DNA of 64,000 nucleotides from Shigella phage CWP003: sequence record OL856099; one strand, given 5' to 3'. The first letter of the stretch is position 1. The number at the start of each line of letters is the position of its first letter. The position numbers and the translations under genes were made by a program. Shown in pieces: positions 7,967 to 61,739 of this stretch. The notes beneath the pieces were generated by a model. That model had not been told where the DNA came from. It saw only the letters and a program-made list of their open reading frames with translations, and did no database searches.

Positions 7967-7988
7967 GCAGGATTTTACGCGTATAATG

Positions 7989-8256: not shown

Positions 8257-8309
8257 AATTAAGGCGCGGCTATATCGGTTGTTATACATATTCAAACCAT
8301 AATTATTGT

Positions 8310-8338
8310 TTGCCTAAGTTTTTTTCATTAGATATAAT
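8310..8338 (+). promoter_or_regulatory. Sigma70-like promoter (TTGCCT, 17 nt spacer, TATAAT) for the scaffold/capsid operon
   Basis: Read from sequence about 25 nt upstream of ATG 8362. Confidence 0.45.
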
Positions 8339-42523: not shown

Positions 42524-43323
42524 CCTTTTGATACTCCATCTTTAGCAACTGGATTGTTGGTGATTGGCATCGCACTCCAAAACTGGATGCGCAACTCTTC
42601 TTGCTGTGCCGTGGTATCCATCCAATCACGATACCAAGGGCAATGGGCTTTACCGTGACGAGGAAATGCGCACTTACCCATACCAATGCATTGCGGCTGC
42701 AGTAATGGATTCGCCCAAGGGTGCACCTTGAGGACTTCCGCAACCATTGCGCGGAATACTTCTTGATACTCTCCTTGCGTGCGCGTGCACAAGCGGTTTG
42801 ACGCCATCTGCTGCAGCGTGCGCAAGTTGAACTTTGCCATGATATGCGTTTGCATATTAGAAGGCAACACGGCACGTGCATCTTGAATCTCTGCGCCAGC
42901 CGCGCGAAGCTCTTGATACAAAGCGTCGATAGTCGCCATCGCATCATCCCACTTCTCTGCCAGTTCAGCTGCCTTCTCGTCATGGCGAGTCCATCCCTTT
43001 GGATCATCCTCTGGGTAAGTGAATTTAGCAGGACGAATCGCATCAAATGCAGACGACTCCTGAGCGCGGCTGGTGCGTTCTTGATATGCGCCTGTGCGTG
43101 TGCGTACCATCTGATGGGTCATGTTCTTTGATACAGCTGTGATATCAAAGATATAGTCCACAAAGTCAAAAGGCGACTTGATTGTATCAAGCATGTAGCG
43201 CCAATGCTCTTGCTTCTCTGATTCCGTCATCTCAGAGACAGGCTTACCAGTCATGCGCGTGTTCTTTGTTTCCAGCAAAAGGTCAAGTGCATCTTGGGTG
43301 TATCGAATTAATTCAACTTTCAT
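42520..43323 (-). CDS. ThyX-like flavin-dependent thymidylate synthase homolog with divergent signature
   Basis: 267 aa; VRTRTGAYQERTSRAQ aligns to the ThyX signature RHR-x7-S-x-R with His-to-Thr and Ser-to-Thr changes; a second ThyX-like stretch LRTLQQMASNRLCTRTQGEYQEVFRAM. From memory of the family, not a search. Confidence 0.55.
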   Translation of the reverse strand: MKVELIRYTQDALDLLLETKNTRMTGKPVSEMTESEKQEHWRYMLDTIKSPFDFVDYIFDITAVSKNMTHQMVRTRTGAYQERTSRAQESSAFDAIRPAKFTYPEDDPKGWTRHDEKAAELAEKWDDAMATIDALYQELRAAGAEIQDARAVLPSNMQTHIMAKFNLRTLQQMASNRLCTRTQGEYQEVFRAMVAEVLKVHPWANPLLQPQCIGMGKCAFPRHGKAHCPWYRDWMDTTAQQEELRIQFWSAMPITNNPVAKDGVSKG

Positions 43324-43336
43324 TTTAATTGTCCTA

Positions 43337-43783
43337 TTAACGGTAATTCACTAGTTGCTGATCACCAGAGAAGGTGCAATGATAAACGAATTGTGCGTTA
43401 TAAAGCAACTGAAAACTTTTCTTTGGTTCATTATTAGAACTCATTGATGTAAAGATTTCTGCACCAGAACGGTTTTCACCAATCAGATTGATAAAGCCGC
43501 CAGTTGAACGAGGTTGAACGAAAGTGAAACGTTGCATCCACGGAGTCCGGTTGACACCTTTTCCGGTGAATCCTTGAATCTGAATATTCAGACCTTCTTG
43601 CTCATTCACACCGATGTAAGTGGTAATCTTCGCACCAGTCGTTGCTGCGGTCTTACCGTCCATCGCTTCGCAATCGTAAACAGCGATTGAATCGGAAGTA
43701 CGGATGGCGGCTTCAGTCGCTTCCATATACATGGTGCCGAGAATAGCAGTTGCGGCAAGCGCGATTCCAGTGATTCGTTTCAT
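43337..43783 (-). CDS. Secreted protein with signal peptide (function unknown)
   Basis: 148 aa; N-terminus MKRITGIALAATAILGTMYMEA; no enzyme motif recognised. Confidence 0.5.
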   Translation of the reverse strand: MKRITGIALAATAILGTMYMEATEAAIRTSDSIAVYDCEAMDGKTAATTGAKITTYIGVNEQEGLNIQIQGFTGKGVNRTPWMQRFTFVQPRSTGGFINLIGENRSGAEIFTSMSSNNEPKKSFQLLYNAQFVYHCTFSGDQQLVNYR

Positions 43784-43848
43784 TTTCGTTTCCTCTATGA
43801 GTTCTGCTTCAATGATTAAAGTATACGCCCATTGAAGCAGAAAGCAAA

Positions 43849-44844
43849 TTATTTATTAGCAATATAAGCAAATTTTTGATAGTTATTTGCTTTGATGAGT
43901 TTTTCGACTTCAACAAGGTCATGAGCGACGTCATCAAGCAAGATATTGCGCCAGGTCGCGAATCGACCGACACTAAACACGTTTAAATCCATAGTCAGCT
44001 GCAGGAGTAGGGCGTGTCGCAAGTCTTTCGGAATGTCGACAATCTTGCCATATTTCTGGTCGACCTTTTCAACTTCTTCAAGAGCAATGTCACTCCATGA
44101 AAGGCCAAAGGCCGTCAACACTTCGTCGACTTCTGCGCGCAGCTTCATGTCACGGTAACGAGTGATGCCGCCTGCGGCTTCAACTGCAGCTTCACTCACG
44201 CTGACCAAAGGAATTGTTTCAATGATAAGCGTGTCACCAGTAATTGATGCGCGGTAAGTTCTGACGGAGTAGTCAGGGAAGTAAATTGTCTGATACAAAT
44301 CACACTTACGTTTAATCTTAAAGCGGTAAACGCGAATGTTTGCTTTATCAAATGAGAAATCAAGCTTTTGATCAATTCCAGCAAGCTTCATCATGACTGG
44401 CAGCGGCGACGTGTTGATGATTGGCGTCTCGCTATAGCCGCAAAGAGTATCAACCGGAGTATTAAAGAATATGCGGTCACCCAGTTTGTCGACAAGCTGA
44501 TCATAAAAGTCATCAGGCGCAATATAACGCGTTGCAGTCTTAAGCTTCATGATTGAACGGCTGCCAAATTGATTGGTGACCTTCATGGAATACATATTGG
44601 CAAGGTTGATTGGGCAATGGTCGTGATAGTAGTTGCCGCGAAAATACACAGCCTTGTCAACTGTCACGGCCTTAAAAGGGATTCCGGTAATACGGCTTAC
44701 TTCTTCGCCGCGAAAGCGTAGCAGCGCCTTGTGCTGTTGCGCTCGTTCCCCTGCTTCGTACACAATAGAGTTCGGGAAGTGACACGCGGTGATAAGTCCT
44801 GCCAATCCGCCGCCGATAATCATTACAGGTTGTTTCATGTTCAT
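43849..44844 (-). CDS. FAD/NAD(P)-binding Rossmann-fold oxidoreductase
   Basis: 331 aa; N-terminal dinucleotide-binding motif VMIIGGGLAGL (GxGxxG). Confidence 0.6.
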   Translation of the reverse strand: MNMKQPVMIIGGGLAGLITACHFPNSIVYEAGERAQQHKALLRFRGEEVSRITGIPFKAVTVDKAVYFRGNYYHDHCPINLANMYSMKVTNQFGSRSIMKLKTATRYIAPDDFYDQLVDKLGDRIFFNTPVDTLCGYSETPIINTSPLPVMMKLAGIDQKLDFSFDKANIRVYRFKIKRKCDLYQTIYFPDYSVRTYRASITGDTLIIETIPLVSVSEAAVEAAGGITRYRDMKLRAEVDEVLTAFGLSWSDIALEEVEKVDQKYGKIVDIPKDLRHALLLQLTMDLNVFSVGRFATWRNILLDDVAHDLVEVEKLIKANNYQKFAYIANK

Positions 44845-47646: not shown

Positions 47647-48729
47647 ATGGCTAGTTTAAGAGAAGAAGCAAAAATAATCGAAGAGTTTTTGACGGAACTC
47701 CAAAGAGGCATTCCAGAAGATGAACGCGTCATGACCGTGTTTGCTCCTGAAGCAACAGTGCAGACTGACGAGCGCGGCAAAAAGATTAACAGCAGCTTCT
47801 GGCCTAAGCCTTGGAAGCTTGGCAAGCCGCTGATGCAACATCAGAACGGTTACGCCTGCATAAGTTCAATGCGTAAGTCTCCCAACCCAAAGACAGGCGA
47901 GATGCGATACTGGCGCACGGAATCGGCTTTCGGTCATGGCATGGCGATGATGGTCGACGACATCGGACACGGTAAAGGGTCCAAAGGCGATTTGGATTTG
48001 GAGTTCTTTTTCGAGCGCCTAAAACCAACCGTCATTGTCGAGACTTCGCCGAACAACCACCAGCTGTGGTACTTCTTTAAAGACCCGATTGACCATCTTA
48101 TCCAGTTCAAGGCATTTCTTGGGTCTTTCGTAAACATGGTACTCAAGAAGGGCGGCGACAACACGATTAAAGATGTGACGCGCGTTGGCCGTGTTCCTGG
48201 GTGTATCAACAACAAACGTGTGACTCACGACGGACCTTACAAATATGTCGATGAGAACGGCGACCCGTTCCGCTGCCGACTTGTTCATGCAGACTACTCT
48301 TTGCGCTACACAATCGAAGAGATTTGCCAAGCCTTCGGTTTCCACGTCGTTATGCCGCAAAAGCGTGAAATTCAAATCGACGTTGACGAATACAAATATG
48401 ACGCTGTTTGGTATAAGATAGCCCAGCAAATCCTTGCGCGCAATAAGATGGGCGAAGGGTCCGATGGCGATGTGGTTGAAAACATGTCAGGTAAATGCCG
48501 CATCATCTGTCCTTGGGGTGAAGAGCACACCAACGGCGACCCATACGGCGCTTATTTTCGCGGCCCAATCCCTGGCGCTGAACATGAATTCGTTTTCGGT
48601 TGCGCTCACGACTGCCACCGGAAAGGGGAAGGCAAGAAAGGATGGACCGCTTTTGTTGAAGCAGTAGTTATGCCTTATATTGAGAATCAACTTGATATGA
48701 TAAATCGTCGCGCAGGTGGCATAAAATAG
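47647..48729 (+). CDS. Primase-polymerase (archaeo-eukaryotic primase-like) with C-terminal zinc-binding region
   Basis: 360 aa; MMVDDIGHG (hhhDxD-like), SPNNHQLWYFF (sxH-like), C-terminal Cys/His cluster (CRIICPWGEEH...CAHDCH). From memory of AEP motifs. Confidence 0.5.
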   Translation: MASLREEAKIIEEFLTELQRGIPEDERVMTVFAPEATVQTDERGKKINSSFWPKPWKLGKPLMQHQNGYACISSMRKSPNPKTGEMRYWRTESAFGHGMAMMVDDIGHGKGSKGDLDLEFFFERLKPTVIVETSPNNHQLWYFFKDPIDHLIQFKAFLGSFVNMVLKKGGDNTIKDVTRVGRVPGCINNKRVTHDGPYKYVDENGDPFRCRLVHADYSLRYTIEEICQAFGFHVVMPQKREIQIDVDEYKYDAVWYKIAQQILARNKMGEGSDGDVVENMSGKCRIICPWGEEHTNGDPYGAYFRGPIPGAEHEFVFGCAHDCHRKGEGKKGWTAFVEAVVMPYIENQLDMINRRAGGIK

Positions 48730-50038: not shown

Positions 50039-51709
50039 ATGTCAATTGAACATGACAATCTTCCAGAGGATACAGGTGATGAATTTGGTGCAATCTTTGA
50101 CGAAATTCAAGACGCTGGTGTTTCAGAAGAAATGCAAGCGGCAGAGCAGCAAGGCACCAGAGCTAAAATCAGCCTACAGCACAAGGCTGTTGAGAAAGAT
50201 GCAGAGCGCATGGAATGCTACGGTGAAGAAGACTTGGTTGAAAGAGCACGTTTGCTCGCCTCACTTCAGGTAATCAAGTTCCCTCATTATAAACCGACGA
50301 AAGATGATTTTGTTCTTCAGGCGGACCGGACGAGTGACATGAACCGTTATGCGGTTTTCGACGCGTTGTTTGATAAGGGAAGCGGCATCGTCCCATTCCC
50401 TCACAAAGATACTTTTCGTGGACGCTTAGTCGACCATCGCGGCGAAACATTCACCGACCGGACGTTGGAAGTCACAGAGATAGTTGCCGCTGTCGATGCA
50501 GCAGGCCTGTCCAACCCAAACTCACGTCAGGTCGCTCAATCCTATAAGGAATGGGCCATGCGTTATCAGCGCGACGACCTGATGGACTTCTTCTACAAGA
50601 AGCTTCCTGAATGGGACGGTACTGCGCGCATTGAGAAATACCTTATCGAGCTATTCCGACCGTTCGATACAGAGTTAAACCGACAAATCGGTGTGTATTT
50701 TTGGCTATCGCTCTATAACCGCCTGACCAACCCTGGCTGTCAAGCGCCAATCTCCATCGCGCTCATCGGCGGCCAGAACGCAGGGAAGAGTTATTTTAGT
50801 AAGCTGCTTTGCGAAGCTATTATGAACGACCGCCACGCAACACCGATTCCGTTGAACTTGGCCGCGCAGAACTTCAACCCGTTCTTGCGAGCTATTACGG
50901 GTCGCTCAATTATCGCGAACGTTGGCGAGATGACGGGCTTTAAAAAGGCCGACATCGAAAACATGAAGGCATTCCTGACTAAGACGGAAGATGACCTGGA
51001 CTTCAAATTTGAAGACACGCAGGTCAAACCACGCCAGTGGATTGCTATCATGGACGGCAACGAATACGCAGGCATGCAGCGTGACGATACGGGCAACCGT
51101 CGTGTGTATCCTATCTTTGTTGGCCAACTCGCCGACAAGGACGGGCAACCGAACTGGTCAAAAGACTTCCAAGCTGACCTTTCCACTTTGAAAGAAGACG
51201 TTTGGCAACTGATGGCTGAGTGTGCTGCGTGGATGGAGAAGCACGGCGAAGCAGGTTACAACGCGTTTGTCGGTGAAACGTCTCGCATGCTTACTGAGTT
51301 CAGTAAGAACGAAATGGAACGCGCTCGCGGCGTTATCCGTGATGAGATGGTCGACAACGACCTTGTTGAAGTCGTCATTACCGCGCCTTATGACCGACAT
51401 CACAGCGGACGCTGGCACATCACCAGTGGTGCAATCGCTATGGGATTCAGAGCTAAGTGCGGCAAGTCGCCTTTCTCACGTACCCTTGCGCCGCACATGT
51501 CGAAGCTTGGATTTGAGCCTGCAACCTATCGCAACCAGCGCGGCTACTTTACGCCGCTGATTAAGAATGAAGCAGGGGAATACATTTCTGACTTGATGAC
51601 TATCTTAGCGTATCTTATTCGCGACGAGTCTGACCCTGAAGATATTGAATTCTTGAAGAAGGTTATTGAACGCAAACGTTCTTTAGGAAGAGATAAGGAT
51701 GAATTCTGA
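50039..51709 (+). CDS. VirE/D5-like P-loop NTPase (primase-associated helicase)
   Basis: 556 aa; central Walker A IGGQNAGKS with a downstream acidic Walker B-like stretch. Confidence 0.65.
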   Translation: MSIEHDNLPEDTGDEFGAIFDEIQDAGVSEEMQAAEQQGTRAKISLQHKAVEKDAERMECYGEEDLVERARLLASLQVIKFPHYKPTKDDFVLQADRTSDMNRYAVFDALFDKGSGIVPFPHKDTFRGRLVDHRGETFTDRTLEVTEIVAAVDAAGLSNPNSRQVAQSYKEWAMRYQRDDLMDFFYKKLPEWDGTARIEKYLIELFRPFDTELNRQIGVYFWLSLYNRLTNPGCQAPISIALIGGQNAGKSYFSKLLCEAIMNDRHATPIPLNLAAQNFNPFLRAITGRSIIANVGEMTGFKKADIENMKAFLTKTEDDLDFKFEDTQVKPRQWIAIMDGNEYAGMQRDDTGNRRVYPIFVGQLADKDGQPNWSKDFQADLSTLKEDVWQLMAECAAWMEKHGEAGYNAFVGETSRMLTEFSKNEMERARGVIRDEMVDNDLVEVVITAPYDRHHSGRWHITSGAIAMGFRAKCGKSPFSRTLAPHMSKLGFEPATYRNQRGYFTPLIKNEAGEYISDLMTILAYLIRDESDPEDIEFLKKVIERKRSLGRDKDEF

Positions 51710-52356
51710 TGAATAAAGCAATCAACATCGCTAAATTCTTTCAACATCTCGGTGAACTGAACAAAGAGAGTGACGTTCACGGAGAAGAAATGAACCGGAT
51801 GATTTCAACCGTGTTGCGTGGTTTTGGTTACGATAAGGACTCAATCACCTGTAAGCGCACGAAGCTTGTCGATGAGACATACCTTTACTACGTTGAATTG
51901 CGCGTAGGCAAAGATTTGATGATCATCGACCCTAAATTGGAAGGGGCGCACTGTTTTGGCGCTCACCCTCGTGCGAGTGAATTCAAGGGTCGCGGTCGCA
52001 ACCGACTCCAGAAGCTTGATGATGCAGGCGACCTGAACATCTCGATGTTCCTCAAAGAGTTCCTTGCTCTGCCGAAGGTTGCATCTTCAACGGGCCGTGA
52101 TGACCTGTGCAAGATTGGATTCAGAACTAAAGATTTGCGCAATGCGCTACGCAAGAAGGGATTTGTGCCTTCTTATGATAACGTCGCCGCGCTGATGGCT
52201 TCCATGGAGGAAGCTGAAGCAATGGACAAGGTGCGCGGCTATTTCCTGAATACAGGCTACACAATGTATGAGTGGCACACCAAAGGATTGACGGTCGCCG
52301 ACTTCATCTATTCATTAGAGCAGAAGTATGTACGCAATATGCAGGCCACAGGATAA
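51709..52356 (+). CDS. Hypothetical early protein
   Basis: Track ORF, overlapping the upstream stop. Confidence 0.45.
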   Translation: MNKAINIAKFFQHLGELNKESDVHGEEMNRMISTVLRGFGYDKDSITCKRTKLVDETYLYYVELRVGKDLMIIDPKLEGAHCFGAHPRASEFKGRGRNRLQKLDDAGDLNISMFLKEFLALPKVASSTGRDDLCKIGFRTKDLRNALRKKGFVPSYDNVAALMASMEEAEAMDKVRGYFLNTGYTMYEWHTKGLTVADFIYSLEQKYVRNMQATG

Positions 52357-52395
52357 TTATCATCAAAATATTTGCTTTTCTGACGAGGTGATATT

Positions 52396-52620
52396 ATGAT
52401 TAATTTAGACAGGATTGAGTTAGCACTTAGTACCTTAATCAAATATTACCAGTTTGCTTTTAAGGCTAGTTTATTTGGCTTGTTCAATCCTCATCAAGCA
52501 GCAAAGGCGCGAAGCAATGCCAACCGCCTGCGCTGCACTGGTATAGTCATCCACGACCGGATATTGACAGAGGGTAGATTCAGCCATGAATACACAAGGG
52601 AGAATAACAAAGCAACGTAG
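52396..52620 (+). CDS. Hypothetical small protein
   Basis: Track ORF; GAGGTGA RBS. Confidence 0.4.
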   Translation: MINLDRIELALSTLIKYYQFAFKASLFGLFNPHQAAKARSNANRLRCTGIVIHDRILTEGRFSHEYTRENNKAT

Positions 52621-52791
52621 AGCTTTACAAGTCCTCATCCACTACCTGACACGCCTTTATCCAACGGCGCACGAGCAGAATCCATCAACTGGTCACCTGT
52701 TTAAGCGCCGTAACCTTTCGTTGAAAACATTCGCTTTAATCCAATACGACCGCTACCTGGACGGGCGCTACTGTGGCCCGAAGGACTCACT

Positions 52792-53070
52792 ATGATTACT
52801 ACATACAAAGTGTTCTTTGTCAAGTGCACATCATCGATTGATGACCAGTTTACTGCTGGAAAGAATTATCCCGTGATTTCTGAGTCAAGACTAGATATAA
52901 TCTTGAACGATCATGAAATCTATGAGCCGATGCCAGCAACTGCGTTTGATGTTATCGGTCACGTTCGGATTAAGACGAATATTGAAACGATGCATGACCC
53001 GTTGTTCAAGAAGCAGATTAAGAATGCCATGCAAGACTTTTGCGCAGCAATGTTTAAATACTATAAGTGA
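52792..53070 (+). CDS. Hypothetical small protein
   Basis: Track ORF. Confidence 0.4.
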   Translation: MITTYKVFFVKCTSSIDDQFTAGKNYPVISESRLDIILNDHEIYEPMPATAFDVIGHVRIKTNIETMHDPLFKKQIKNAMQDFCAAMFKYYK

Positions 53071-53447
53071 GTTGAAGATGAGAAAGAAAACTCTTAAGGC
53101 TGGGGACCGCATCCGTTGGATGTCAGGACAGAATATGCGCGCAGGCACCATCCTTGAGCTGGATCAATACCTTACTGATTCGCGTGGTCGCAATCACTAT
53201 CGCGTTCGAATCGATACGGTAAAAGAAGATGACAAGTCACTGGTTGGTGAAGTGGTCATCGTTACTCCACGTCAAATTAAGGCGGCTTGCGAAGCATGAA
53301 TAAATTTCAGTTCAAAGATAACAAGATCAGTAAAGCAGACGCAATCAAGCAGCTTCGCCGCGTACTTGAAGCCAGCGGCCATACAAAAGAGCGTGCACGC
53401 GTCTTAGCCAAAGAACATTATAAACGTTTTGTGTCACAAATCAGAGG

Positions 53448-53801
53448 TTGACCATGGCTCATGTTAAAGATGAAACGCTGTATGGCGCAGAGATTAAGAA
53501 GCGCGTGCGTGAGATGGCTGAAGGCGGTACGTTGATACCGTCGCGAGTCCGCTGCGACCACGTGATTGGCGTGTCCGGTACGAAGGAGATGGGCGTGTTG
53601 GTAAAAGACATTCGCGTTGGCGATGTCATGGTCATCGACCGACAAGCGCGAGTTGTTATCCAGGTGCAACCGAACGATGATGAAGGATGTGTCCTATTGA
53701 AGCTGAAGAAGCTTTCATCCAGCCCAGCAAAGGCCGTCATCAAGAAGGTCTGGCCCGAAGGATTACGCAAACTCATTCGTCGACCAGTGGAGAATGCATA
53801 A
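53448..53801 (+). CDS. Hypothetical small protein
   Basis: Track ORF; the real start may be an internal ATG. Confidence 0.4.
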   Translation: MTMAHVKDETLYGAEIKKRVREMAEGGTLIPSRVRCDHVIGVSGTKEMGVLVKDIRVGDVMVIDRQARVVIQVQPNDDEGCVLLKLKKLSSSPAKAVIKKVWPEGLRKLIRRPVENA

Positions 53802-54079
53802 TGAATAAAGATACCTTCAACGAAAGATTGGCGAAATTTGAAAAAGAGCAAGGTGAAAGGCCGTTAAAAGTACGTTTGAATGTTGATAGAAATTACGGTT
53901 TGGACATTCAGACTTATAGCTTGTGGCTGGTAGGTCGTTCGAGCTTTGACGATGCATTAATAATGGGAGTTGACACGCTTTTCTTAGAAAGATTTAAAAG
54001 CAATAAAAAGGCTATCGATTGCTTATCACGATATGAAAAATGGCTTGTTAAGTATTATAAAGAACGGGAGAATGTATAA
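53801..54079 (+). CDS. Hypothetical small protein
   Basis: In frame with track ORF 53687..54079; start placed at the ATG overlapping the upstream stop. Confidence 0.4.
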   Translation: MNKDTFNERLAKFEKEQGERPLKVRLNVDRNYGLDIQTYSLWLVGRSSFDDALIMGVDTLFLERFKSNKKAIDCLSRYEKWLVKYYKERENV

Positions 54080-54315
54080 TGGAAGATTATATTAATTCTA
54101 TGTACATGGCATTCTATGTCGTGCAACTTCCCAATGGCGCGGTATTTTATGGCGAGTATACCTTTGACGTTCAATATGACGTCTCAGAGCGTACAGTGTT
54201 AACAAGGGAGTTGATTGCGGACCTTAAGGACGACATCAAGCGCGTCGCGCGGCAGCAGTTCAATTTGGATGACACCGTCATCGTTCGAATTACCGGAATA
54301 ACAGAGGTGCAGTGA
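54079..54315 (+). CDS. Hypothetical small protein
   Basis: Track ORF. Confidence 0.4.
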   Translation: MEDYINSMYMAFYVVQLPNGAVFYGEYTFDVQYDVSERTVLTRELIADLKDDIKRVARQQFNLDDTVIVRITGITEVQ

Positions 54316-54644
54316 TGACCCGTGATCAGATACTCGCCGCGCATGAGCGTGGGTTGATAAAGGAAGTGTGGAAGAAGGCCAATGCCTTTGCTGATTCTTA
54401 TTACTTCTTAAAGAAGTGCATCAAGCAAAACGCAAAGATGGATAACACTGTATTGACATTCAACCTTTTGTCTAACGGAGCGAAGCTTGATGCAATATGC
54501 GGTTGCAGAATTGCCAGTGTGATGTTTGAACGAGGTGCTCACAAAGACTCTTTCTTCTATCAATTCTCTCACCGGACGGGTGATACAAAGATAACAAGGA
54601 CGCGTGAAGAGCTGGAGATTGACCTACTCCACTATGTAAAATGA
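54312..54644 (+). CDS. Hypothetical small protein
   Basis: Track ORF, followed by a terminator. Confidence 0.45.
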   Translation: MMTRDQILAAHERGLIKEVWKKANAFADSYYFLKKCIKQNAKMDNTVLTFNLLSNGAKLDAICGCRIASVMFERGAHKDSFFYQFSHRTGDTKITRTREELEIDLLHYVK

Positions 54645-54650
54645 ATATCA

Positions 54651-54683
54651 AAAAGGTGAGCTAAATGCTTGCCTTTTCTTTTA
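54651..54683 (+). terminator. Intrinsic terminator (AAGGUGAGC stem, UAAAU loop, U-run), copy 1 of a repeated terminator-promoter cassette
   Basis: 9-bp stem with two G-U wobbles followed by TTTTCTTTT; near-identical copy at 56164. Confidence 0.55.
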
Positions 54684-54697
54684 TCAATACTTATACT
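54669..54697 (+). promoter_or_regulatory. Promoter overlapping the terminator (TTGCCT, 17 nt spacer, TATACT)
   Basis: -35 lies inside the terminator 3' stem; same TTGCCT -35 as the scaffold promoter at 8310. Confidence 0.4.
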
Positions 54698-54729
54698 CTT
54701 TTCATCAAGACTAACAAGCGAGGTGAATT

Positions 54730-54978
54730 ATGGAACGTTATATAGATGCAGAGTGCTTGATAAGTGCAGGTTTGAATGAGGCTGTAGAAGGAAGTAAATA
54801 TGCCATCTGTCAATCTGATTATCCGTACAAAGATACTTTTTGGATTGAATTTGGATCAAAAGGGAGTAAGCACCACGTCACTTATGACGTTTGGAAAGCA
54901 CCAAGCGGACTTTTTTACATTTTAAAACGTCATTGCCAGCCAGAGTCAGGCGCATTGGCCATATTCAAGGAGGTGTGA
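54730..54978 (+). CDS. Hypothetical small protein
   Basis: Track ORF with GAGGTGA RBS. Confidence 0.45.
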   Translation: MERYIDAECLISAGLNEAVEGSKYAICQSDYPYKDTFWIEFGSKGSKHHVTYDVWKAPSGLFYILKRHCQPESGALAIFKEV

Positions 54979-54980
54979 TT

Positions 54981-55298
54981 ATGATTTACTTAGGCATCGA
55001 CAAGGAACAAGACGAGCGGTTAGGAAGCGTATTAAACGTGGACTTAAACACATCTGTACACATCAAGCCTTGGCCAGAGGCGCACCCCGACGTAGTTGTA
55101 CCCGTTGCGCCTTGGGCGCGTTACGTTGCCATTGACAATGATGGACTTGTCCATTGTTACTCAGAAAAGCCGACATACTTCGAAAAGTATCACCAATGGC
55201 TTATGACTGGATGGGCATTGGTGCGCTGTTGCGGCGAAGTCGGTCTGGAAGGCTGGAGCTTCGAGGCCAGTGAATCGTGTGTCGAGGTGCAATTATGA
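54981..55298 (+). CDS. Hypothetical small protein
   Basis: Start ATG 54981 (AAGGAGGTG RBS) in frame with track ORF 54891..55298. Confidence 0.45.
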   Translation: MIYLGIDKEQDERLGSVLNVDLNTSVHIKPWPEAHPDVVVPVAPWARYVAIDNDGLVHCYSEKPTYFEKYHQWLMTGWALVRCCGEVGLEGWSFEASESCVEVQL

Positions 55299-55513
55299 AT
55301 GCCGCGCTGGGTAAGTTGTCTTTTAACAAGCGCAATGAGCTGCGCATGGTATCGCGCTTTCAACAAACGCATTTATCACTAATCAAGATTGCAAACAAGG
55401 CCTACTCTCTAAATTGTCCTGAAGAAGAATGGAAAGAATTGAATGAGCGTCGTAAACAATTACAAAAGGCTGCATTCAAGCTGCAGCAATATGCTATGGA
55501 GTATGCAAAATGA
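55295..55513 (+). CDS. Hypothetical small protein
   Basis: Start ATG 55295 in frame with track ORF 55277..55513. Confidence 0.4.
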   Translation: MNAALGKLSFNKRNELRMVSRFQQTHLSLIKIANKAYSLNCPEEEWKELNERRKQLQKAAFKLQQYAMEYAK

Positions 55514-55902
55514 GAATGAAACGTTGCCCGTATTGCCACGATGTGATGCGTCTATCACACGAAGGATTTGTTAATCACATGAATGGCTGTGATAAGAATC
55601 CTAGAAATGAAAGCAACCTTGAAGAAAGAATGTTTCTGGTGTCATTCAAGTATTCAGCTTATGACGCGCAACTGGCTTACGGTGCGAGCGGTGCACCAAG
55701 TGCTATTAACTGCCCAACGACATTGAGAAGTGACATCGACTCAATCCAACTTGCGGCTTGGATTAACGTTAAGGAAGGAATCACGCCGCACTTTATCGCG
55801 CGCATCCAATCCCAGATTCTACAAATCAAGCGCGAATACAACCGTGACATCACTGAAGTGAAGGTGCTTTCCATTACGCCGATGAATAAGGAGTTGCCGT
55901 GA
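55510..55902 (+). CDS. Small protein with N-terminal zinc-finger-like motif
   Basis: CPYCHDV...HMNGC near the N-terminus. Confidence 0.4.
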   Translation: MRMKRCPYCHDVMRLSHEGFVNHMNGCDKNPRNESNLEERMFLVSFKYSAYDAQLAYGASGAPSAINCPTTLRSDIDSIQLAAWINVKEGITPHFIARIQSQILQIKREYNRDITEVKVLSITPMNKELP

Positions 55903-56159
55903 ACAAGGGTCCGATGACTAAGTTAGCCGTTGCCGCGCGGAAGCTTCGACAAGCCGTTAATGGGTCGCGGCCCGTGGTGTTAACACTCGACGATGCAAAG
56001 GCACTGGTAGAGCTACTCGACGAGCACAACCGACGCAAGAATCTGGAGAACACATTACGCTGGCGCGTCACTCCAGCCGGGCGGGAGAGCGAGAAGAAAG
56101 CTTACTTGCGACGCAAACTAAGGTCAGTCGGCCTCCACGAAGAGGCGAAGAAGATTTGA
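55899..56159 (+). CDS. Hypothetical small basic protein
   Basis: Track ORF followed by terminator copy 2. Confidence 0.4.
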   Translation: MNKGPMTKLAVAARKLRQAVNGSRPVVLTLDDAKALVELLDEHNRRKNLENTLRWRVTPAGRESEKKAYLRRKLRSVGLHEEAKKI

Positions 56160-56163
56160 TTCA

Positions 56164-56196
56164 AAAAGGTGAGCTAAATGCTTGCCTTTTTATTTA
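56164..56196 (+). terminator. Intrinsic terminator, copy 2 of the repeated cassette
   Basis: Same stem-loop as 54651..54683 followed by TTTTTATTT. Confidence 0.55.
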
Positions 56197-56209
56197 CCTG
56201 TATTATACT
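56182..56209 (+). promoter_or_regulatory. Promoter overlapping terminator copy 2 (TTGCCT, 16 nt spacer, TATACT)
   Basis: Read from sequence. Confidence 0.4.
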
Positions 56210-56237
56210 TATTTCATCAAGCAAAGGAGAATTGATT

Positions 56238-56543
56238 ATGAGTTATGACGAAAGGTTTGGCAGAAGCGGATTATTTCATGACGCTGTACACAAAGACAGC
56301 CAAGATGTTGTCTGCGTAGCATTTAATGAATCTTATTACGGCGTGTTCAAGCCGTTTAAGGTCGGTGAGACATACGAATTGTTTCACGGCTGGTTGACGC
56401 GTCGCAACAACTTGCCTGATATGGAAGTATGGTGGATAGAATACAAGGGTCAGGCTCATCGGTGCAAAGTTGTAGAGATGCACGGCGTCAAATACTATCA
56501 ATCTATTATCAGCGGCTTTGTTTTTAAAGAGGGTGAGCTATGA
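56238..56543 (+). CDS. Hypothetical small protein
   Basis: Start ATG 56238 (AAGGAGA RBS); track ORF 56178..56543 begins inside the terminator loop and is probably too long. Confidence 0.45.
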   Translation: MSYDERFGRSGLFHDAVHKDSQDVVCVAFNESYYGVFKPFKVGETYELFHGWLTRRNNLPDMEVWWIEYKGQAHRCKVVEMHGVKYYQSIISGFVFKEGEL

Positions 56544-56845
56544 GTACAGAAGCAATGAAGAAAAAGGTTTTGAACGCTTTGCAAGAAGCCGTGAACTGTG
56601 GTGCCATTAAAACGTTCACAGAAAGGAACGTCGGTGAAGTGACGGTGCACGGATTTAACAATAACAAAAATGGAATTGCAGCCATCATGCTTTTAAAGAA
56701 TAGCGATGACACATTCATCCTTTACGTTGGCGGATATGAGCTTATCGTTGATGATTTGTTTATCACTTGCGCTGACGGCCTTAACCCGATGTTAACGTTC
56801 GAGCGTCGCGGCATCCGTGTTGCAACATTTGGAGGGAAGTTATGA
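56540..56845 (+). CDS. Hypothetical small protein
   Basis: Track ORF. Confidence 0.4.
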   Translation: MSTEAMKKKVLNALQEAVNCGAIKTFTERNVGEVTVHGFNNNKNGIAAIMLLKNSDDTFILYVGGYELIVDDLFITCADGLNPMLTFERRGIRVATFGGKL

Positions 56846-57027
56846 GTACCGAAGTCCACAACGCATCAGCCTTGGTAAGCTTTTACCGTAACAAAGGCGT
56901 GTCGCTCGTTAAAACGCCGCAAGGGATGTTGTTCTTTGGCACGCGATTCCTGAAAGCATCGGAGCGTGAAACGCTGTCCAAGTTCGACCAGAAAACATTA
57001 CACGCAGTTTGGAGAAGACAACAATGA
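56842..57027 (+). CDS. Hypothetical small protein
   Basis: Track ORF. Confidence 0.35.
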   Translation: MSTEVHNASALVSFYRNKGVSLVKTPQGMLFFGTRFLKASERETLSKFDQKTLHAVWRRQQ

Positions 57028-57317
57028 GACTAAGCCTAGCGCAAATTCAAACATTGTACCGAATGGAAGATGGAACGCCATACATGCTGCGCGGCGACCG
57101 CAAGAAGGCTTATGAAAAGCGGCCATCACTGTTCCACGACATCAATGCGCCGTCAATCCCTGTCTTATTCCGGTTGGGCCTTGTTGATTGGGCAGCGCCA
57201 GGAGAGAAAGACCCGACGCGCTATTCATCCGTGGTGATGACAAAAGCAGGTCGCGCGGCATTAAAAGAAATTAAAGAGAGTATGGCTGGAGGTAAATATT
57301 ATGGCATCAAATCTTAA
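57024..57317 (+). CDS. Hypothetical small protein
   Basis: In frame with track ORF 57009..57317. Confidence 0.4.
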   Translation: MRLSLAQIQTLYRMEDGTPYMLRGDRKKAYEKRPSLFHDINAPSIPVLFRLGLVDWAAPGEKDPTRYSSVVMTKAGRAALKEIKESMAGGKYYGIKS

Positions 57318-57537
57318 AGCCCGTTTATTATTCATCAAGCCGCATGTGCCGTATAAGATTAGCAAACGCACCTGGCTTAATATTTACAACCGCAGCGGCG
57401 ACCGTTGCTTGTACAAGGCGAAGCGACGCAAGAAGGTATATTTAAAAGCGGTGATGTCGAAGCCCGTCGATGCATTCACCATCGGCGAAAATGAATTGTC
57501 AATCGGCTATCAAATTGAACTCGGAGTAAAGAAATGA
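57301..57537 (+). CDS. Hypothetical small basic protein
   Basis: Track ORF. Confidence 0.35.
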   Translation: MASNLKARLLFIKPHVPYKISKRTWLNIYNRSGDRCLYKAKRRKKVYLKAVMSKPVDAFTIGENELSIGYQIELGVKK

Positions 57538-58043
57538 AAATCGAACAACTCGAAGCAGTATTGGAAATGGCCGTAAAGGCAGGCGCAATCAAAAGCTATC
57601 GTCGCGAGAAGTCAGATAGCGACAGGGTGTTTTGTCGCAACTTCTATATCGTCGGCAACCTTAACGACCACTACGCCATCGAGTGGTATATTAACATAAT
57701 GACCCTTAAGTCGCGCACAATGGAGCTTTGGTGCGATGACATCTGTCTTTCGAATACTCACCCAAGCTATGATGTCGCCCTGGCATTCTATCACGGAAGC
57801 CGTCAACCTGTCGCCCACATCGGTGAGAAGCATGAGCATCTTAAGGCGCAACCAGAGGAATCAATGGAAGGCTGGATTGAATGGGCTGGCGGCGAGAATC
57901 CGGTGCCTGGTAAGAAGGTCAAGTATAAGTTGCGCGACGGCGATGAATCAAGAAAGCCTGTTCTTTCAGATGATTTGAGATGGGAGATGGTTGACGATTC
58001 TTATGCAGCTGACATCATCGCTTATCGCGTCGTGGAGGAATGA
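57534..58043 (+). CDS. Early protein with conserved C-terminal W-x2-W-GGENPVPG...DIIAYRVV module
   Basis: Shares a C-terminal module of about 55 aa with 58927..59502. Confidence 0.5.
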   Translation: MKIEQLEAVLEMAVKAGAIKSYRREKSDSDRVFCRNFYIVGNLNDHYAIEWYINIMTLKSRTMELWCDDICLSNTHPSYDVALAFYHGSRQPVAHIGEKHEHLKAQPEESMEGWIEWAGGENPVPGKKVKYKLRDGDESRKPVLSDDLRWEMVDDSYAADIIAYRVVEE

Positions 58044-58384
58044 TGGAAGAGCAAGAAGGCCGTGAACTAACGTTCGACGAGCAAATGAAAGAGCTTCAGC
58101 GCACATCGCCTCTGCGCGGTAAGGTTGTTGACATTGAGGCGAGCGAATCCAATCTCACCAAGTGGCGGCTCAAGTGCACCAGCACAAGCAAGGATATGTT
58201 AAGCTTCAAAGTCGGTCAGACTTATTTGCTTTATGAGGCAAAAGGACTTATTATTGATGGAAGGCAAATTGTCTTCACGGTCGTCAACGGGATGCGTTGG
58301 TTCGTGAAGCGTGATGTCGAGGGTCGTGACATGTTTGTCGCAGGCTTTCCAGAAGCAAGATTCCAATTGGAGAAGATTAAATGA
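58040..58384 (+). CDS. Hypothetical small protein
   Basis: Track ORF. Confidence 0.4.
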   Translation: MMEEQEGRELTFDEQMKELQRTSPLRGKVVDIEASESNLTKWRLKCTSTSKDMLSFKVGQTYLLYEAKGLIIDGRQIVFTVVNGMRWFVKRDVEGRDMFVAGFPEARFQLEKIK

Positions 58385-58713
58385 AATTGAAATGGTATGT
58401 GGACCCTGAGCCAACAGGCCAATACAGGTCATTCCAACGTCGCGGCTGGCCGACTTGTTACAACGGTAATCCCGATAAAGAAGATTGCGAGCTGCTTGCC
58501 GCCATCGTAAGCCTCGACCATCACGGCTATGAAGGCCACTACGCGAGAGCAACCAACCTTCGGCTCAAGGTGCGCATCCATTTCAAGGTCGCAGGCGAGG
58601 ACCGCACCGGACTCTCCAAGGAAGAGTTCAGCAGCATCGCTGAAGCAAAGGCATGGCTCAAGGCATTCTATAAGAACAACCCTAAATTCTATCCAACTAA
58701 GGATGCGTCATGA
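58381..58713 (+). CDS. Hypothetical small protein
   Basis: Track ORF. Confidence 0.4.
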   Translation: MKLKWYVDPEPTGQYRSFQRRGWPTCYNGNPDKEDCELLAAIVSLDHHGYEGHYARATNLRLKVRIHFKVAGEDRTGLSKEEFSSIAEAKAWLKAFYKNNPKFYPTKDAS

Positions 58714-58943
58714 CCGATAAACAATACGCAGTCGGGCAGCGTGACATCGAGCAACTCGACGAGGGCGGCTATTATACGCGCCACATCTATGCCATGACGC
58801 ATGAAGGACTTTACAGCAAGTCTGACATCGCTGCTGAACTGGCCCATCGTGACTTGCAAATTGACATGTTGCGTCTTGCTCTTGAGAAGCAAACACAAAT
58901 CGCCATCGAAATTTTGGAGAAGTTAAATGATACAACGTTATGA
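58710..58943 (+). CDS. Hypothetical small protein
   Basis: Track ORF. Confidence 0.4.
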   Translation: MTDKQYAVGQRDIEQLDEGGYYTRHIYAMTHEGLYSKSDIAAELAHRDLQIDMLRLALEKQTQIAIEILEKLNDTTL

Positions 58944-59502
58944 TGTTGATTATTGCACGCAGCACGCTTGCACATGCGAAGTTGTAAAGGATGATGAAGG
59001 CGGCTATGTTGAATATGAGGACTATGCCGCGTTGGAAGCGAAATACAGTGAAGTAAAAAGTCGCGTCGAGCTGGAAGCGAAACATAGTGAAGTTAAAACG
59101 TATGCAGTAAACTGCAACGACGCGTGGCTTAATACAAAGGGTGATGACACCTCTGGTTCATATGTCAAGTTTTCTGATTATGCCGCGCTGGAAGCGAAAT
59201 ATAGTGAAGCGCAACGCGAGTTGGTTGCATTACGCTCACAGGTCCGTGATGCATCGGCGCTCGTTAAGCAGTTGCACGATGTTGTTGCTACTATAGTCGT
59301 GGATGTTGATGCGCCGAAGGAAGAAGCGTGGACCGTGTGGCACGGTGGAGAGAATCCGGTGCCTGGGGAAATGGTTGAATACAAGCTGCGCAATGGAGAA
59401 GATAAAGTGCTGTCAAGACTCTCTGACCATCTTCACTGGGGTCATATAGGCGCGTTAAAGGGCAGCGACATCATCGCTTATCGGGTCGTTAAGGAGGGGT
59501 GA
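58927..59502 (+). CDS. Early protein with internal DYAALEAKYSE repeats and the shared C-terminal module
   Basis: Three copies of (E/S)DYAALEAKYSE-like repeats; C-terminus WTVWHGGENPVPGEMVEYKLRNGED...DIIAYRVVKEG. Confidence 0.5.
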   Translation: MIQRYDVDYCTQHACTCEVVKDDEGGYVEYEDYAALEAKYSEVKSRVELEAKHSEVKTYAVNCNDAWLNTKGDDTSGSYVKFSDYAALEAKYSEAQRELVALRSQVRDASALVKQLHDVVATIVVDVDAPKEEAWTVWHGGENPVPGEMVEYKLRNGEDKVLSRLSDHLHWGHIGALKGSDIIAYRVVKEG

Positions 59503-60035
59503 TGGGTAACAATGCAGGATGGGGCAAGCCGCGATACTCCAAACTTGCCCACTACTTTGACAATGGCGAACAAATCAGCTTGTGCGGCAAATTCAATAAG
59601 GGCAATACGGAGTTGACCGACTCTCAAGAAATGGAGTCAAGTTTAACAATTGGTGATTGCGCGAAGTGTCGCAAGGCATTATATGAATTATTAACTCTAA
59701 AGGGATTGAAAGTTGCAAAATCAAGGGATGAATGGGTCATGAACGTCTGTGAAGGGAATACAGAATTAATGGATGAATGGCTAAAGACGGATGCGGTCAA
59801 TGCCATATTCAAAAGGAATTATAAGACCTGTATGCGTTACAAGATGAAAGATGATATTATTTTTATGGTATTATCTTATTCAAGGAACACAACGGACGTC
59901 AAAAAGCTTCGACAATATCGCCACAAGGTCATGTGTGAATTGCGCCGTTTAGGAGTGATTGTTGATAATAATGTCATTAAAACGGAGTTGGAGAAGCGGG
60001 ATAAAAGGAATGGTGACTGGAAGGTCAGCGGATAA
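59499..60035 (+). CDS. Hypothetical protein with N-terminal Cys pairs (possible zinc ribbon)
   Basis: Track ORF; ...LCGKF...DCAKCRKA. Confidence 0.4.
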   Translation: MMGNNAGWGKPRYSKLAHYFDNGEQISLCGKFNKGNTELTDSQEMESSLTIGDCAKCRKALYELLTLKGLKVAKSRDEWVMNVCEGNTELMDEWLKTDAVNAIFKRNYKTCMRYKMKDDIIFMVLSYSRNTTDVKKLRQYRHKVMCELRRLGVIVDNNVIKTELEKRDKRNGDWKVSG

Positions 60036-60300
60036 AGAACACTGTATTGCGTGTTTTGAATAATGGGATGTGTACAATTGGTCGCTTTACGCGGCCTTTT
60101 GTTGTTGTTTGGGTCGTGTTTCGTGATTGAATAATTATGAGGCGATGTTTTATTTATTAATTGTGCGGAAATATTTAGAAATATATATAGACAGGATTGT
60201 TAATATTTTAATAGTGTATGGCTATCGGTCCGTGGTGTTTGTTAGGAATTATCTATGGATTGAAATTTTAGTGTCGTGAAACGTGGTGTTTGAACATATT

Positions 60301-60660
60301 TGATACGCGTAAAATACGGCTAAAAATTAAGCGTATCATGGCTGCAGGCCGCGCCGTTCCTGGATTCCTCTTTTCCAAATTGGTACACCCTTACGTCATG
60401 ATACGTCATGGTTTTTTATCCGTATCAGTGTACAGCCCTTGCCGCGCCTGGCTTGTACATTAATCTTACGGATGATACGGATAAAACTGGGCATCGTTAT
60501 ATATATAATTTGAAAAATTAATTAACTCCATTTTGAATTAATTTAAATTAATTTTTTTCTACATCCTCATACTTATGTTAATTTATATATAACGTATTAT
60601 CCGTAAGATATAAGTAAAAACAAAGACTTGCGGCAATACGGATGATACGTCATGATACGC
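60301..60660. repeat. Iteron locus 2: GATACGGAT/ATCCGTATC and GATACGTCATG repeats around an AT-rich core; shares a 21-mer with locus 1
   Basis: Seen directly: ACGTCATGATACGTCATGG, TTTTATCCGTATCAG, AATCTTACGGATGATACGGAT (identical to 8029-8049), AT-rich 60490-60590, TTATCCGTAAGAT, CAATACGGATGATACGTCATGATACGC. Confidence 0.65.
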
Positions 60661-60806
60661 TTCAACCAGCCAGTAGCGGCTAAGTCATTGATTTGCATAA
60701 CAAGCGGCGAAAGGGATGGACTTCTTTTATACGTATCAAACAGTACACCACGCACCACGGTCCGATATTCATTCAGCACTATGATTTATGTACGTTTACA
60801 GCCAAT

Positions 60807-60835
60807 TTGAACATCAATCTGCACTTGAATATAAT
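60807..60835 (+). promoter_or_regulatory. Sigma70-like promoter (TTGAAC, 17 nt spacer, TATAAT)
   Basis: Read from sequence; followed by two tandem TTGCACTAT motifs overlapping the RBS and ATG of the downstream gene. Confidence 0.45.
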
Positions 60836-60887
60836 GTTCAATCATTATATAATTCACACTATTAATTTGCACTATGGGATTTGCACT

Positions 60888-61361
60888 ATGAGTCAAGATT
60901 ATGTAGCAATGCCTGAAGACTTTGAAGACCCGCGATTTGCAGAGCATAATCAGGCATTATTCGATGAGTTCATCGACCTTGTTATTCAGGGCCATGACAT
61001 GCGCGCAGCTTTTGCACTAGTATTTGGCATGGAGGTTGCGACCGATAACTACACTGGCCAGCGAATCCTGTGCACTCAGCGCAATCCGTACTACAAGATG
61101 CGCTACAAAAAGCGTATGGAAGAGATGCCATTGAAGGAATTGTGGAGCGTAAAGAGTTCCATTCACAATTTAGTGAAGCTTGTGCGTGATCCAGAAGTCG
61201 CAGCATCAGCCAAGCTTAATGCCATTCGTGAACTGAATATCATCTACGGCATTACGATGATTGATGAAAACGGCAATAGTAAAATGGGCCGTTCCATGGA
61301 TGATTTCTACAAGGATTTTGGAGAGGCGGCCAAAGAGGGTGAGCAATTCTCCCGCCACTAG
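60888..61361 (+). CDS. Small helical DNA-binding-like protein (possible regulator or small terminase-like protein)
   Basis: 157 aa from ATG 60888 in frame with track ORF 60693..61361; central stretch IDLVIQGHDMRAAFALVFGMEVATDNYTGQRIL reads as an HTH-like segment. Functional call speculative. Confidence 0.4.
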   Translation: MSQDYVAMPEDFEDPRFAEHNQALFDEFIDLVIQGHDMRAAFALVFGMEVATDNYTGQRILCTQRNPYYKMRYKKRMEEMPLKELWSVKSSIHNLVKLVRDPEVAASAKLNAIRELNIIYGITMIDENGNSKMGRSMDDFYKDFGEAAKEGEQFSRH

Positions 61362-61475: not shown

Positions 61476-61739
61476 TCATCTTTTAGTCACTTTACGTAAC
61501 AATTTACGACCTTCCGCCGTCCAGTCGAACGACTCCACCAGCAAATTTGCACTATAACCTAAGACGATGCGCCCTTTCTCGTTATCTACCCGCCAACAAG
61601 TCTCAAATAGCATTCGATTTGCACTATTAACTATCGCCGCAACGCGCGTTGGGTAAGCGCAATTTGCACTATGGTCATAAAGGGATAAGGTGCGACCACT
61701 TCCGATGGACAACGTAGCGATGAGAATAAGCGTATTCAT
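61476..61739 (-). CDS. Possible small ORF overlapping three motif copies (each read as Ser-Ala-Asn)
   Basis: Track ORF; GGTGG RBS before the ATG; coding status uncertain because the repeated motif dominates. Confidence 0.3.
   Translation of the reverse strand: MNTLILIATLSIGSGRTLSLYDHSANCAYPTRVAAIVNSANRMLFETCWRVDNEKGRIVLGYSANLLVESFDWTAEGRKLLRKVTKR

Follow-up and report, generated by a model that had tools for sequence, protein, structure and literature searches.

The pac site of phage P1 consists of short repeated elements clustered on both sides of a centre of about 100 bp that is cut by the terminase; these are palindromic hexamers methylated by Dam, the site is located within pacA, packaging is by headful, and we know of no conserved second copy. 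T7 is a direct-terminal-repeat phage in which short-repeat arrays abut the repeat boundary and a hairpin-forming sequence has been implicated in end formation. Two distant loci with common initiator-binding repeats beside AT-rich DNA are found in SPP1 (oriL and oriR) and in P4 (ori and crr). The pac site of SPP1 (pacL-pacC-pacR) is bound by the TerS protein G1P. Its layout has been summarised as repeat arrays flanking a cleavage core (PMC9611059), and for T4 a 'twin-ring pac synapsis' model has been described with two homologous sequences, in gene 16 and gene 19, one of them at terS, and with TerS rings proposed on both (PMC9611059). The mechanism by which phages generate direct terminal repeats of kilobase length is poorly understood. 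There is disagreement in the literature over whether the family of the therapeutic Pseudomonas Pbunavirus phages has defined or permuted genome ends (PMC12390725), and the solved small terminase of phage E217 (PDB 7UXE) has no known DNA target (PMC9611059).

We analysed a stretch of 64,000 nucleotides from Shigella phage CWP003 (OL856099; hereafter the window), which belongs to Wifcevirus (E. coli myoviruses of the vB_EcoM_WFH / ECML-117 group, now in Lindbergviridae) and is 97.6-99.9% identical to its closest relative, the complete genome OZ035737.1. Two loci in the window, locus 1 and locus 2, can be compared with the systems above. Like P1 pac, locus 2 has repeats on both sides of a probable cleavage core and sits at the gene for the DNA-recognition subunit; unlike P1 pac, the repeats here are polar 9-bp units in inverted arrays with added GCCGC boxes, the cut marks one precise end of a 3.7-kb direct repeat, and a twin of the site exists. 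The likeness to SPP1 pac lies in the position at the start of the terS gene region and in the general plan, as TerS contact points in SPP1 flank the TerL cut and the intervening DNA, AT-rich in both cases, is bent in SPP1. SPP1 differs in its headful packaging with permuted ends, in boxes that are unlike on the two sides instead of being inverted copies, and in having no known paralogous second site. Lambda cos (cosQ-cosN-cosB) also has repeated small-terminase elements beside the cleavage site, adjoins the small-terminase gene and uses DNA bending as part of its mechanism, but its R elements lie on one side only, it makes 12-nt cohesive ends with no kilobase-scale repeat, and it is a single site. 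T7 has a 160-bp repeat with arrays at both boundaries, whereas here arrays are absent from the right boundary and a second module is found 16 kb into the genome. In T4 the homology extends over about 24 bp, the model is disputed and a unique cut site is absent, in contrast to the twin modules of 300-500 bp described here, which are conserved across genera. The SPP1 and P4 origin pairs were defined by replication assays and initiator binding; here the tie to replication is the look alone, and one locus holds the probable packaging cut.

Public records already contain the termini and the TerS annotation; for the paired modules, the lineage-specific 9-mers and the polar boxes we found no description in the searchable literature. 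The modules supply lineage-specific candidate TerS targets and a conserved sequence context of the cut, with a second conserved site as an unexpected addition, and a defined pac-type site bears on transduction risk.

Two similar loci in the window

Locus 1 lies after a small ORF downstream of the head-fibre gene and before the prohead protease gene; locus 2 is preceded by a block of small genes and followed by the ORF that we identify as terS (Table 1). The product of this ORF matches the TerS decamer of phage E217 (PDB 7UXE) over residues 3-147 (phmmer E = 9e-33), and its counterpart is annotated as terminase small subunit in the record of phage Mansfield; as a Pfam search with the protein gave no match, the identification rests on the PDB match. 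Sigma-70-like promoters with strong matches lie downstream of the modules, and none was found within either AT-rich core at the scan threshold.

Table 1. Positions of the modules, their parts and the adjoining genes in the 64-kb window. A slash marks the cut or, in rows on inverted repeats and palindromes, separates the two arms.
Feature	Position	Strand	Remarks
terL, large terminase subunit gene	1362-2822	+	Pfam PF04466 Terminase_3, E = 3.2e-37
Locus 1 left GCCGC box (7964) and distal left array	7964-8005		CGTATAATGACGTATCATCCGTATCA, three minus-strand units
Locus 1 proximal left array and box	8028-8063	+	21-mer extended to TACGGATGATACGGATGATACG, then TTGCCGCG with GCCGC at 8059
Locus 1 inverted repeat	8033-8054 / 8155-8176		perfect, 22 nt, around a 100-nt core
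Locus 1 AT-rich core	8058-8150		84% AT
Locus 1 right arrays and GCGGC boxes	8152-8270		ATCCGTATCATCCGTATCATCCGTAGCA (8152-8179), TGATACGGAT (8206-8215), TTTTATCCGTATCATCCGTATCA (8230-8252); GCGGC at 8193, 8266
Sigma-70-like promoter, upstream of prohead protease gene	8310-8338	+	TTGCCT-17-TATAAT; consensus match only
Prohead (head maturation) protease gene	8362-9780	+	annotation in WFH, Bas98, kaset, MTx
Locus 2 outer left repeats	60299-60340		TGATACGCGTAAAATACGGCT ... AAGCGTATCATG; strain-variable left flank
Locus 2 inverted repeats	60301-60312 / 60327-60338; 60329-60340 / 60651-60662
Locus 2 left polar boxes and distal left array	60348-60445	+	GCCGC at 60348, 60441, bracketing TTACGTCATGATACGTCATGG, then TTTTATCCGTATCA at 60414-60427
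Locus 2 inverted repeat	60453-60479 / 60593-60619		27 nt, 81% complementary, around a 113-nt core
Locus 2 proximal left array	60462-60482	+	21-mer AATCTTACGGATGATACGGAT; two 9-bp units facing the core
Locus 2 AT-rich core	60483-60593		82% AT; contains the probable packaging cut
Locus 2 palindrome arms	60513-60523 / 60546-60556		on either side of the cut
Locus 2 cut, from relatives' records	60529/60530		ACTCC/ATTTT; left end of direct terminal repeat; 358 bp upstream of terS ATG (60888)
Locus 2 proximal right array	60593-60607	-	CGTATTATCCGTAAG; inverted relative to the left array
Locus 2 right flank	60630-60738		GCGGC boxes at 60630, 60676, 60704; distal array AATACGGATGATACGTCATGATACGC (60634-60660); TTTTATACGTATCA (60725-60738)
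Two overlapping sigma-70-like promoters, upstream of terS	60807-60853	+	TTGAAC-17-TATAAT and TTGAAT-17-TATAAT, 10/12 consensus matches each; consensus match only
terS, small terminase subunit gene	60888-61361	+	157 aa

The initial annotation of this DNA had reported an identical 21-mer at 8029-8049 and 60463-60483, with an AT-rich core containing ATTAATTTAAA at both loci. We found the 21-mer AATCTTACGGATGATACGGAT exactly twice in the window, one base lower (8028-8048 in locus 1 and 60462-60482 in locus 2), and 0 of 100 shuffled sequences gave such a match. Both cores do contain ATTAATTTAAA, at 8088-8098 in locus 1 and at 60537-60547 in locus 2, where it also occurs at 60542-60552 on the minus strand (expected count: 0.10). 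The 10-mer TGATACGGAT, with up to one mismatch, has 13 matches as compared to 3.4 expected (about 4-fold over-representation), and 10 of the 13 fall within the two loci. In OZ035737.1, clusters of TACGGAT/ATCCGTA are found at locus 1 and locus 2 only, and this complete genome has no third copy of the module at the right repeat boundary or elsewhere.

A forward alignment of the two loci from the 21-mer through the core to the right arm has 96 identical columns out of 164. In strain WFH, the left arm of locus 2 matches locus 1 across about 45 nt, and this match marks the loci as true paralogues. Judged by their sequences, locus 1 and locus 2 are thus paralogous modules of about 300-500 bp each; that they are two copies of one module, as had been suggested, also holds across genera by k-mer sharing and synteny. 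Other parts of the early description need revision. The 52-kb separation of the loci applies to this linearisation, but across the genome end the distance is about 16.2 kb, and the loci are not at opposite ends of the gene map; locus 1 sits within the genome, about 16 kb in from its left end. The term 'iteron' is a loose label: repeats are present, but the units are 9 bp long and come in inverted arrays of two or three.

The 9-bp unit GATACGGAT (variants GATACGTCAT and GATACGCGT) forms short tandem arrays that flank each core as inverted repeats, and on each side of both loci a second array of opposite orientation is found about 30 nt farther out. No other 60-nt stretches in the 64 kb form duplexes as unstable as the two cores (-54.3 kcal/mol for locus 1 and -58.2 kcal/mol for locus 2; window mean -82.9, sd 5.8), and the module arms are predicted to form strong single-strand hairpins (z = -7.9 and -4.1). 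The GC-rich boxes are polar: among eight curated sites, all 20 boxes left of the core read GCCGC and all 22 right of it read GCGGC (Fisher p = 2e-12), with a weak extended consensus T(T/A)GCCGC(G/A)A oriented toward the core. Upstream of the protease gene in metagenomic relatives, where the core was defined solely as the least stable stretch, we counted 45 GCCGC versus 8 GCGGC on the left side and 5 versus 30 on the right. The pattern is absent at more distant proteases (identity of 41% or less).

Genome ends and conservation in Wifcevirus

Five Wifcevirus records (WFH, WFC, Ro157lw, SP13 and Mansfield), which come from at least three laboratories (Ro157lw from one in the US), begin at the base that equals window position 60530. 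The first base of WFH thus lies in the middle of the locus 2 core (...TTAATTAACTCC/ATTTTGAATTAATTTAAA...), and its record is linear with a terminal repeat of about 3.7 kb included (PMC6563267). The ends of WFH and WFC were set by their authors where most PacBio reads stop abruptly, and those of Mansfield were set by PhageTerm; the termini were therefore measured in close relatives and not in the isolate behind the window. The direct terminal repeat runs from 60530 for about 3.7 kb (3.5-3.9 kb) and its right end (...gggcatgggtcttt/tggtgcg...) is about 230 bp past the window edge. Because the right-end sequence is the same in WFH, Ro157lw and Mansfield (SP13 differs by one base), both ends are precise. 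An estimate of the WFC right end missed this common sequence; it was derived indirectly from blast offsets and is unreliable. The GATACGGAT motif is absent at the right repeat end.

No deposited record starts or ends at locus 1, and all terminus calls put the left end in locus 2, although low-frequency cutting at locus 1 may occur. Locus 2 very probably holds the packaging cut and the left genome end in Wifcevirus. Among the functions proposed in the initial annotation, that of a packaging site or physical end is supported for locus 2 by the left ends of the five relatives and by the adjoining terS. The proposal of a terminal redundancy, with one copy at each locus, does not hold, since the repeat runs from 60530 for about 3.7 kb to a right end without the motif, and locus 1 is internal.

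Conservation was compared among Wifcevirus genomes. Across 11 of them locus 1 hardly varies, while its flanking genes differ by up to 6%, and it is therefore more conserved than the flanking coding DNA. Every repeat unit matches among the 11 genomes, and the proximal left array with its box is identical in 10 of them; the exception is Eco4M-7, in which two bases are substituted between the final unit and the GCCGC box. In the core of locus 1, three left-edge columns vary between two subgroups, and two genomes have an insertion of 1-2 bases in a T-run. ACTCC is absent at the position of locus 1 that is homologous to the locus 2 cut. At locus 2, TAACTCC/ATTTT is invariant in all genomes aligned across the cut. 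To the right of the cut, the proximal right array is kept in all relatives and the right flank is highly conserved in the genus. The left flank comes in three unrelated sequence versions; the proximal left array is retained in all three, and the repeats appear to be under selection, since each version keeps GATACGG-type repeats beside the core.

Paired sites in related phages

Using blastn, matches to the module were found only in Wifcevirus, and single 16-mer matches in viral contigs were mostly chance, so that the wider distribution was detected only via synteny and k-mer analysis. TerS homologues were found in 358 phage records, including Pbunavirus, Pantoea phage PA1, Serratia phage MTx, and Burkholderia, Xanthomonas and Salmonella phages. 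As an unbiased test, we collected the 7-mers repeated at least three times at the terS-upstream site and searched each genome for clusters of them. In three genera, exactly one other cluster per genome was found. In the window, the terS site at 60376 has 32 counts and the second site at 7976 has 38 (background maximum: 5); the corresponding numbers are 15 at 42601 and 19 at 60201 for Pantoea PA1 (background maximum: 2), and 23 at 68451 and 17 at 16701 for Serratia MTx (background maximum: 5). The second sites of PA1 and MTx are immediately upstream of the prohead protease gene (for PA1, protease synteny was established by tblastn), and this gene is the one downstream of the locus 1 module in every lineage examined.

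The two-site arrangement also occurs in several metagenomic lineages as well as in Pantoea, Serratia and Pseudomonas relatives, with a repeat unit that is common to both sites of a lineage and differs from one lineage to the next: GATACGGAT in Wifcevirus, (A/T)AACCGTT in PA1, ACGAAAA in MTx and GGTAATTTG in E217. Cognate pairs of terS-side and protease-side sites have 30-49 nine-mers in common in six of eight lineages and 14 in a seventh, as compared to 4.2 on average (maximum: 14) for non-cognate pairs. The divergent Xanthomonas-like lineage u46381 has polar boxes at its terS-side site, yet only 4 cognate nine-mers in common. As far as the repeats can tell, their co-variation shows that both sites are bound by some lineage-specific factor, but not which one, and the identity between the two sites could partly be maintained by gene conversion instead of a common binding protein.

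The terS-proximal sites of other genera also coincide with reported ends. The PhageTerm terminus of MTx (...ACGAAAACGAAACC/ATAGTG...) lies inside the terS-proximal module, 376 bp upstream of terS. Of 161 long reads of the Pbunavirus JG024, 36 have their start at 59,376 +/-5, where a pac site was proposed by the authors (PMC10913387); this position maps within the core of the Pbunavirus module, and the Ab27 and Pa193 records begin there. In favour of packaging, Chi sites are concentrated just inside the left end, in the orientation that would protect it, in MTx (4 of 5 copies) and PA1 (7 of 7).

Packaging and competing explanations

We lean towards reading locus 2 as a pac-type site at which the terminase recognises and cleaves the DNA, with locus 1 as its conserved uncut twin. 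The packaging reading is favoured because measured ends fall in the core beside terS, because the module keeps with terS (250-760 bp upstream of it in about 20 lineages), and because P1 and SPP1 pac share the plan of repeat arrays around a cleavage core. The most economical inference, in which we have about even confidence, is that the repeats are TerS docking sites. The repeats would serve as docking sites for the phage's own packaging protein, most likely the ring-shaped TerS encoded next door, tandem 9-bp units would contact neighbouring TerS subunits, and the AT-rich core would be bent or wrapped, so that the TerS-bound complex could position the large terminase, the presumed nuclease, for the cut. 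From there, packaging would run rightward through terS and on into the next genome copy, stopping 3.7 kb inside it at a distinct, sequence-specific right-end site. Locus 1 would bind the same factor without being cut, and might coordinate or titrate the terminase relative to prohead production, or serve as a synapsis partner of the cut site; these roles (titration or regulation, and synapsis) are hypotheses only.

Some observations do not sit easily with this model. In vitro, recombinant E217 TerS did not appreciably bind the DNA with which it was tested (PMC9611059), which speaks against TerS as the binder. The inverted arrays do not fit a single cyclically symmetric ring, and a packaging site alone does not predict a conserved uncut second copy 16 kb off. 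Symmetric arrays around the most meltable DNA are also what a bidirectional origin classically looks like. Satellite or plasmid mimics of the site, which would have proved a packaging role, were looked for in 5,426 E. coli genomes and 72,556 plasmids, with 0 matches.

Paired origins, one of the options in the initial annotation, would account naturally for the existence of two equivalent sites and are a serious competitor of the packaging reading, although we consider them unlikely. Here the 9-bp arrays would be initiator sites and the AT-rich cores unwinding elements of two bidirectional origins per genome, in keeping with the cores being the least stable duplexes of the window and with arrays and polar boxes that are two-fold symmetric about them. 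Origins with oppositely oriented initiator sites around an unwinding element look similar, and SPP1 and P4 provide cases of two distant iteron sites; inverted arrays of 9-bp units are atypical of plasmid or lambda-type iterons and compatible with such symmetric origins, but units of 9 bp with two or three per array also differ from the usual iterons of 17-22 bp. The phage has genes for a VapE-like SF3 helicase (50039-51709) and a RepB-like primase (47647-48729), the hairpin-forming arms could act as primase entry sites can, and in MTx and Pbunavirus the helicase gene is directly upstream of the terS-proximal module. However, the module-to-helicase distance varies from 320 bp to more than 6 kb, the module keeps with terS when the two genes part, and the comparison of about 20 lineages gave no case in which the module follows the helicase gene while terS sits elsewhere; the second site, for its part, is tied to the protease gene at 200-290 bp. 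Cumulative GC skew tracks gene orientation, with turning points at about 30 and 47 kb and no inflection at either locus, and in Pbunavirus the skew minima fall elsewhere, within replication genes (PMC12390725); we note that skew follows transcription only, and we rejected it as an origin indicator. DnaA boxes (TTWTNCACA) were found in neither locus, and TTATCCGTA, tried as a candidate, has a resemblance only. The exact conserved cut inside the core requires an extra assumption under this explanation: either the pac site would have evolved inside an origin, or opening or re-replication there would serve to duplicate the terminal repeat. Overall, the AT-rich symmetric cores agree with paired origins, while skew, DnaA boxes and helicase linkage do not, and there is less support for them than for packaging.

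A bipartite packaging signal, which we regard as improbable, would consist of the cut site and its uncut twin brought together by the same ring-shaped terminase or some other factor specific to the lineage. In that case the cut, and perhaps also the duplication of the kilobase-long repeat, might be licensed only on properly replicated concatemers or during prohead production, which is likewise improbable. To our knowledge, such a mechanism has not been established for any tailed phage. If true, the long-missing DNA target of an E217-type small terminase would be identified.

We give little credence to the modules being common regulatory regions, in which one phage transcription regulator would co-control the terS and prohead-protease operons and the cut would be incidental. 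The modules are at a roughly fixed distance upstream of gene starts with a sigma-70-like promoter in between, both downstream operons serve head assembly and packaging, and TerS dosage matters in E217 (PMC9611059). But strong promoters were not found in the cores, the core-to-gene distance of about 200-760 bp is loose for an activator, and there are two sites only, yet several operons in the late region. With its 300-500 bp and polar boxes to the left and right, the module also far exceeds a typical operator, and the conserved cut is left unexplained.

It is hardly credible that locus 1 is a functionless duplicate of the packaging site whose similarity is upheld by gene conversion: the long identical stretches in both sites could be maintained by recombination, but at least four genera have the second copy in the same syntenic place, as do further metagenomic lineages with protein identities of only 31-57% (TerS) and 44-57% (protease), and locus 1 is better conserved in Wifcevirus than the flanking coding DNA and retains the polar-box symmetry.

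For practical use, synthetic rebooting or engineering of these phages must keep both sites. We also note that several genome records annotate small genes over what is most likely non-coding recognition DNA.

Sequence around the probable packaging module

Among the Wifcevirus strains compared, the stretch directly left of the repeats of locus 2 (the module upstream of terS) occurs in three unrelated sequence versions (a window/WFC type, a WFH/ECML-117 type and a Bas98 type), and the breakpoint between these versions is the start of the 21-mer shared with locus 1, the twin module upstream of the prohead protease gene. A recombination hot spot thus adjoins the packaging site. Outer inverted repeats carry the symmetry of locus 2 out to about ±300 bp (see the table for coordinates), and in Serratia phage MTx the module lies between a GT-rich left flank (GC skew +0.25) and a CA-rich right flank (GC skew -0.46).

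On its right side the terminal repeat stops about 230 bp past the right end of the window, within a 600-bp non-coding stretch of the WFH record that has its own repeats. These repeats are unrelated to the GATACGGAT module, and the stretch is presumably a separate right-end signal.

Features in and around the probable packaging module (window coordinates unless stated)
Feature	Genome	Position	Sequence or remark
Left flank, three versions	window	60036-60462	
Outer symmetry	window	60208-60297 and 60745-60865	
Outer inverted repeat	window		GGTCCGTGGTG / CACCACGGTCCG; 23 nt, 83%, spacing 515 nt
Additional outer repeat	window		CGTGGTGTTTG, 2 copies
Terminal-repeat right boundary	WFH	3500-3840 (record)	between ...gggcatgggtcttt and tggtgcg...
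Right-boundary repeats	WFH		AAATTTGCAGTACACT x2; CGAATCATT(A/C)...
Chi octamer	window	61535-61542	CCACCAGC orientation
Further Chi octamers	window	48057 and 49424	
Chi octamers	MTx	179, 930, 997, 1276 (record)	
Chi octamers	PA1	42964-44536 (record)	
Genes over module	Bas98		Bas98_0092-0095
Genes over module	kaset		CDS0090-0093
ORF over module	E217	675-1295 (segment L053 coordinates)	gp77
ORF over module	JG024		gp77
Tandem 14-bp repeat	window	60865-60891	ATTTGCACTATG x2
Mini-ORF, 5 codons	window	60874-60891	ATGGGATTTGCACTATGA
RepB-like primase (PF16793)	window	47647-48729	
VapE-like SF3 helicase (PF05272)	window	50039-51709	
Small-gene block	window	51709-60035	about 8.8 kb

Chi octamers at the left terminus

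Just inside the left terminus, MTx and Pantoea phage PA1 have a cluster of Chi octamers oriented CCACCAGC; about one such copy is expected per genome strand, and the cluster holds 4 of the 5 copies in MTx and all 7 in PA1. This orientation would block RecBCD coming in from the left genome end, and the cluster looks like a built-in protection of that end. The cluster is also an independent marker of the PA1 terminus. The window has a single Chi octamer 1 kb inside the left genome end.

Genes at and near the module

In several public records the terS-proximal module is overlaid with small genes annotated as hypothetical, and in the Pseudomonas phages E217 and JG024 one ORF of about 200 codons covers all of it, including the proposed pac cut. 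Such gene calls are probably spurious, or at minimum overlap recognition DNA.

At the terS start, the tandem repeat gives rise to a mini-ORF. Its stop codon and the start codon of terS (60888) overlap within the sequence ATGA, an arrangement that could serve for translational coupling or attenuation of a dosage-sensitive protein.

In most relatives the helicase gene is directly followed by the module and terS; in Wifcevirus a block of small genes has been inserted between them. Cumulative GC skew in the window peaks near 30 kb and reaches its minimum near 47 kb, matching the convergent and divergent switches in gene orientation (30000 and 47500). The divergent switch falls between the helicase and primase genes and, if an origin is sought, is a candidate origin region.
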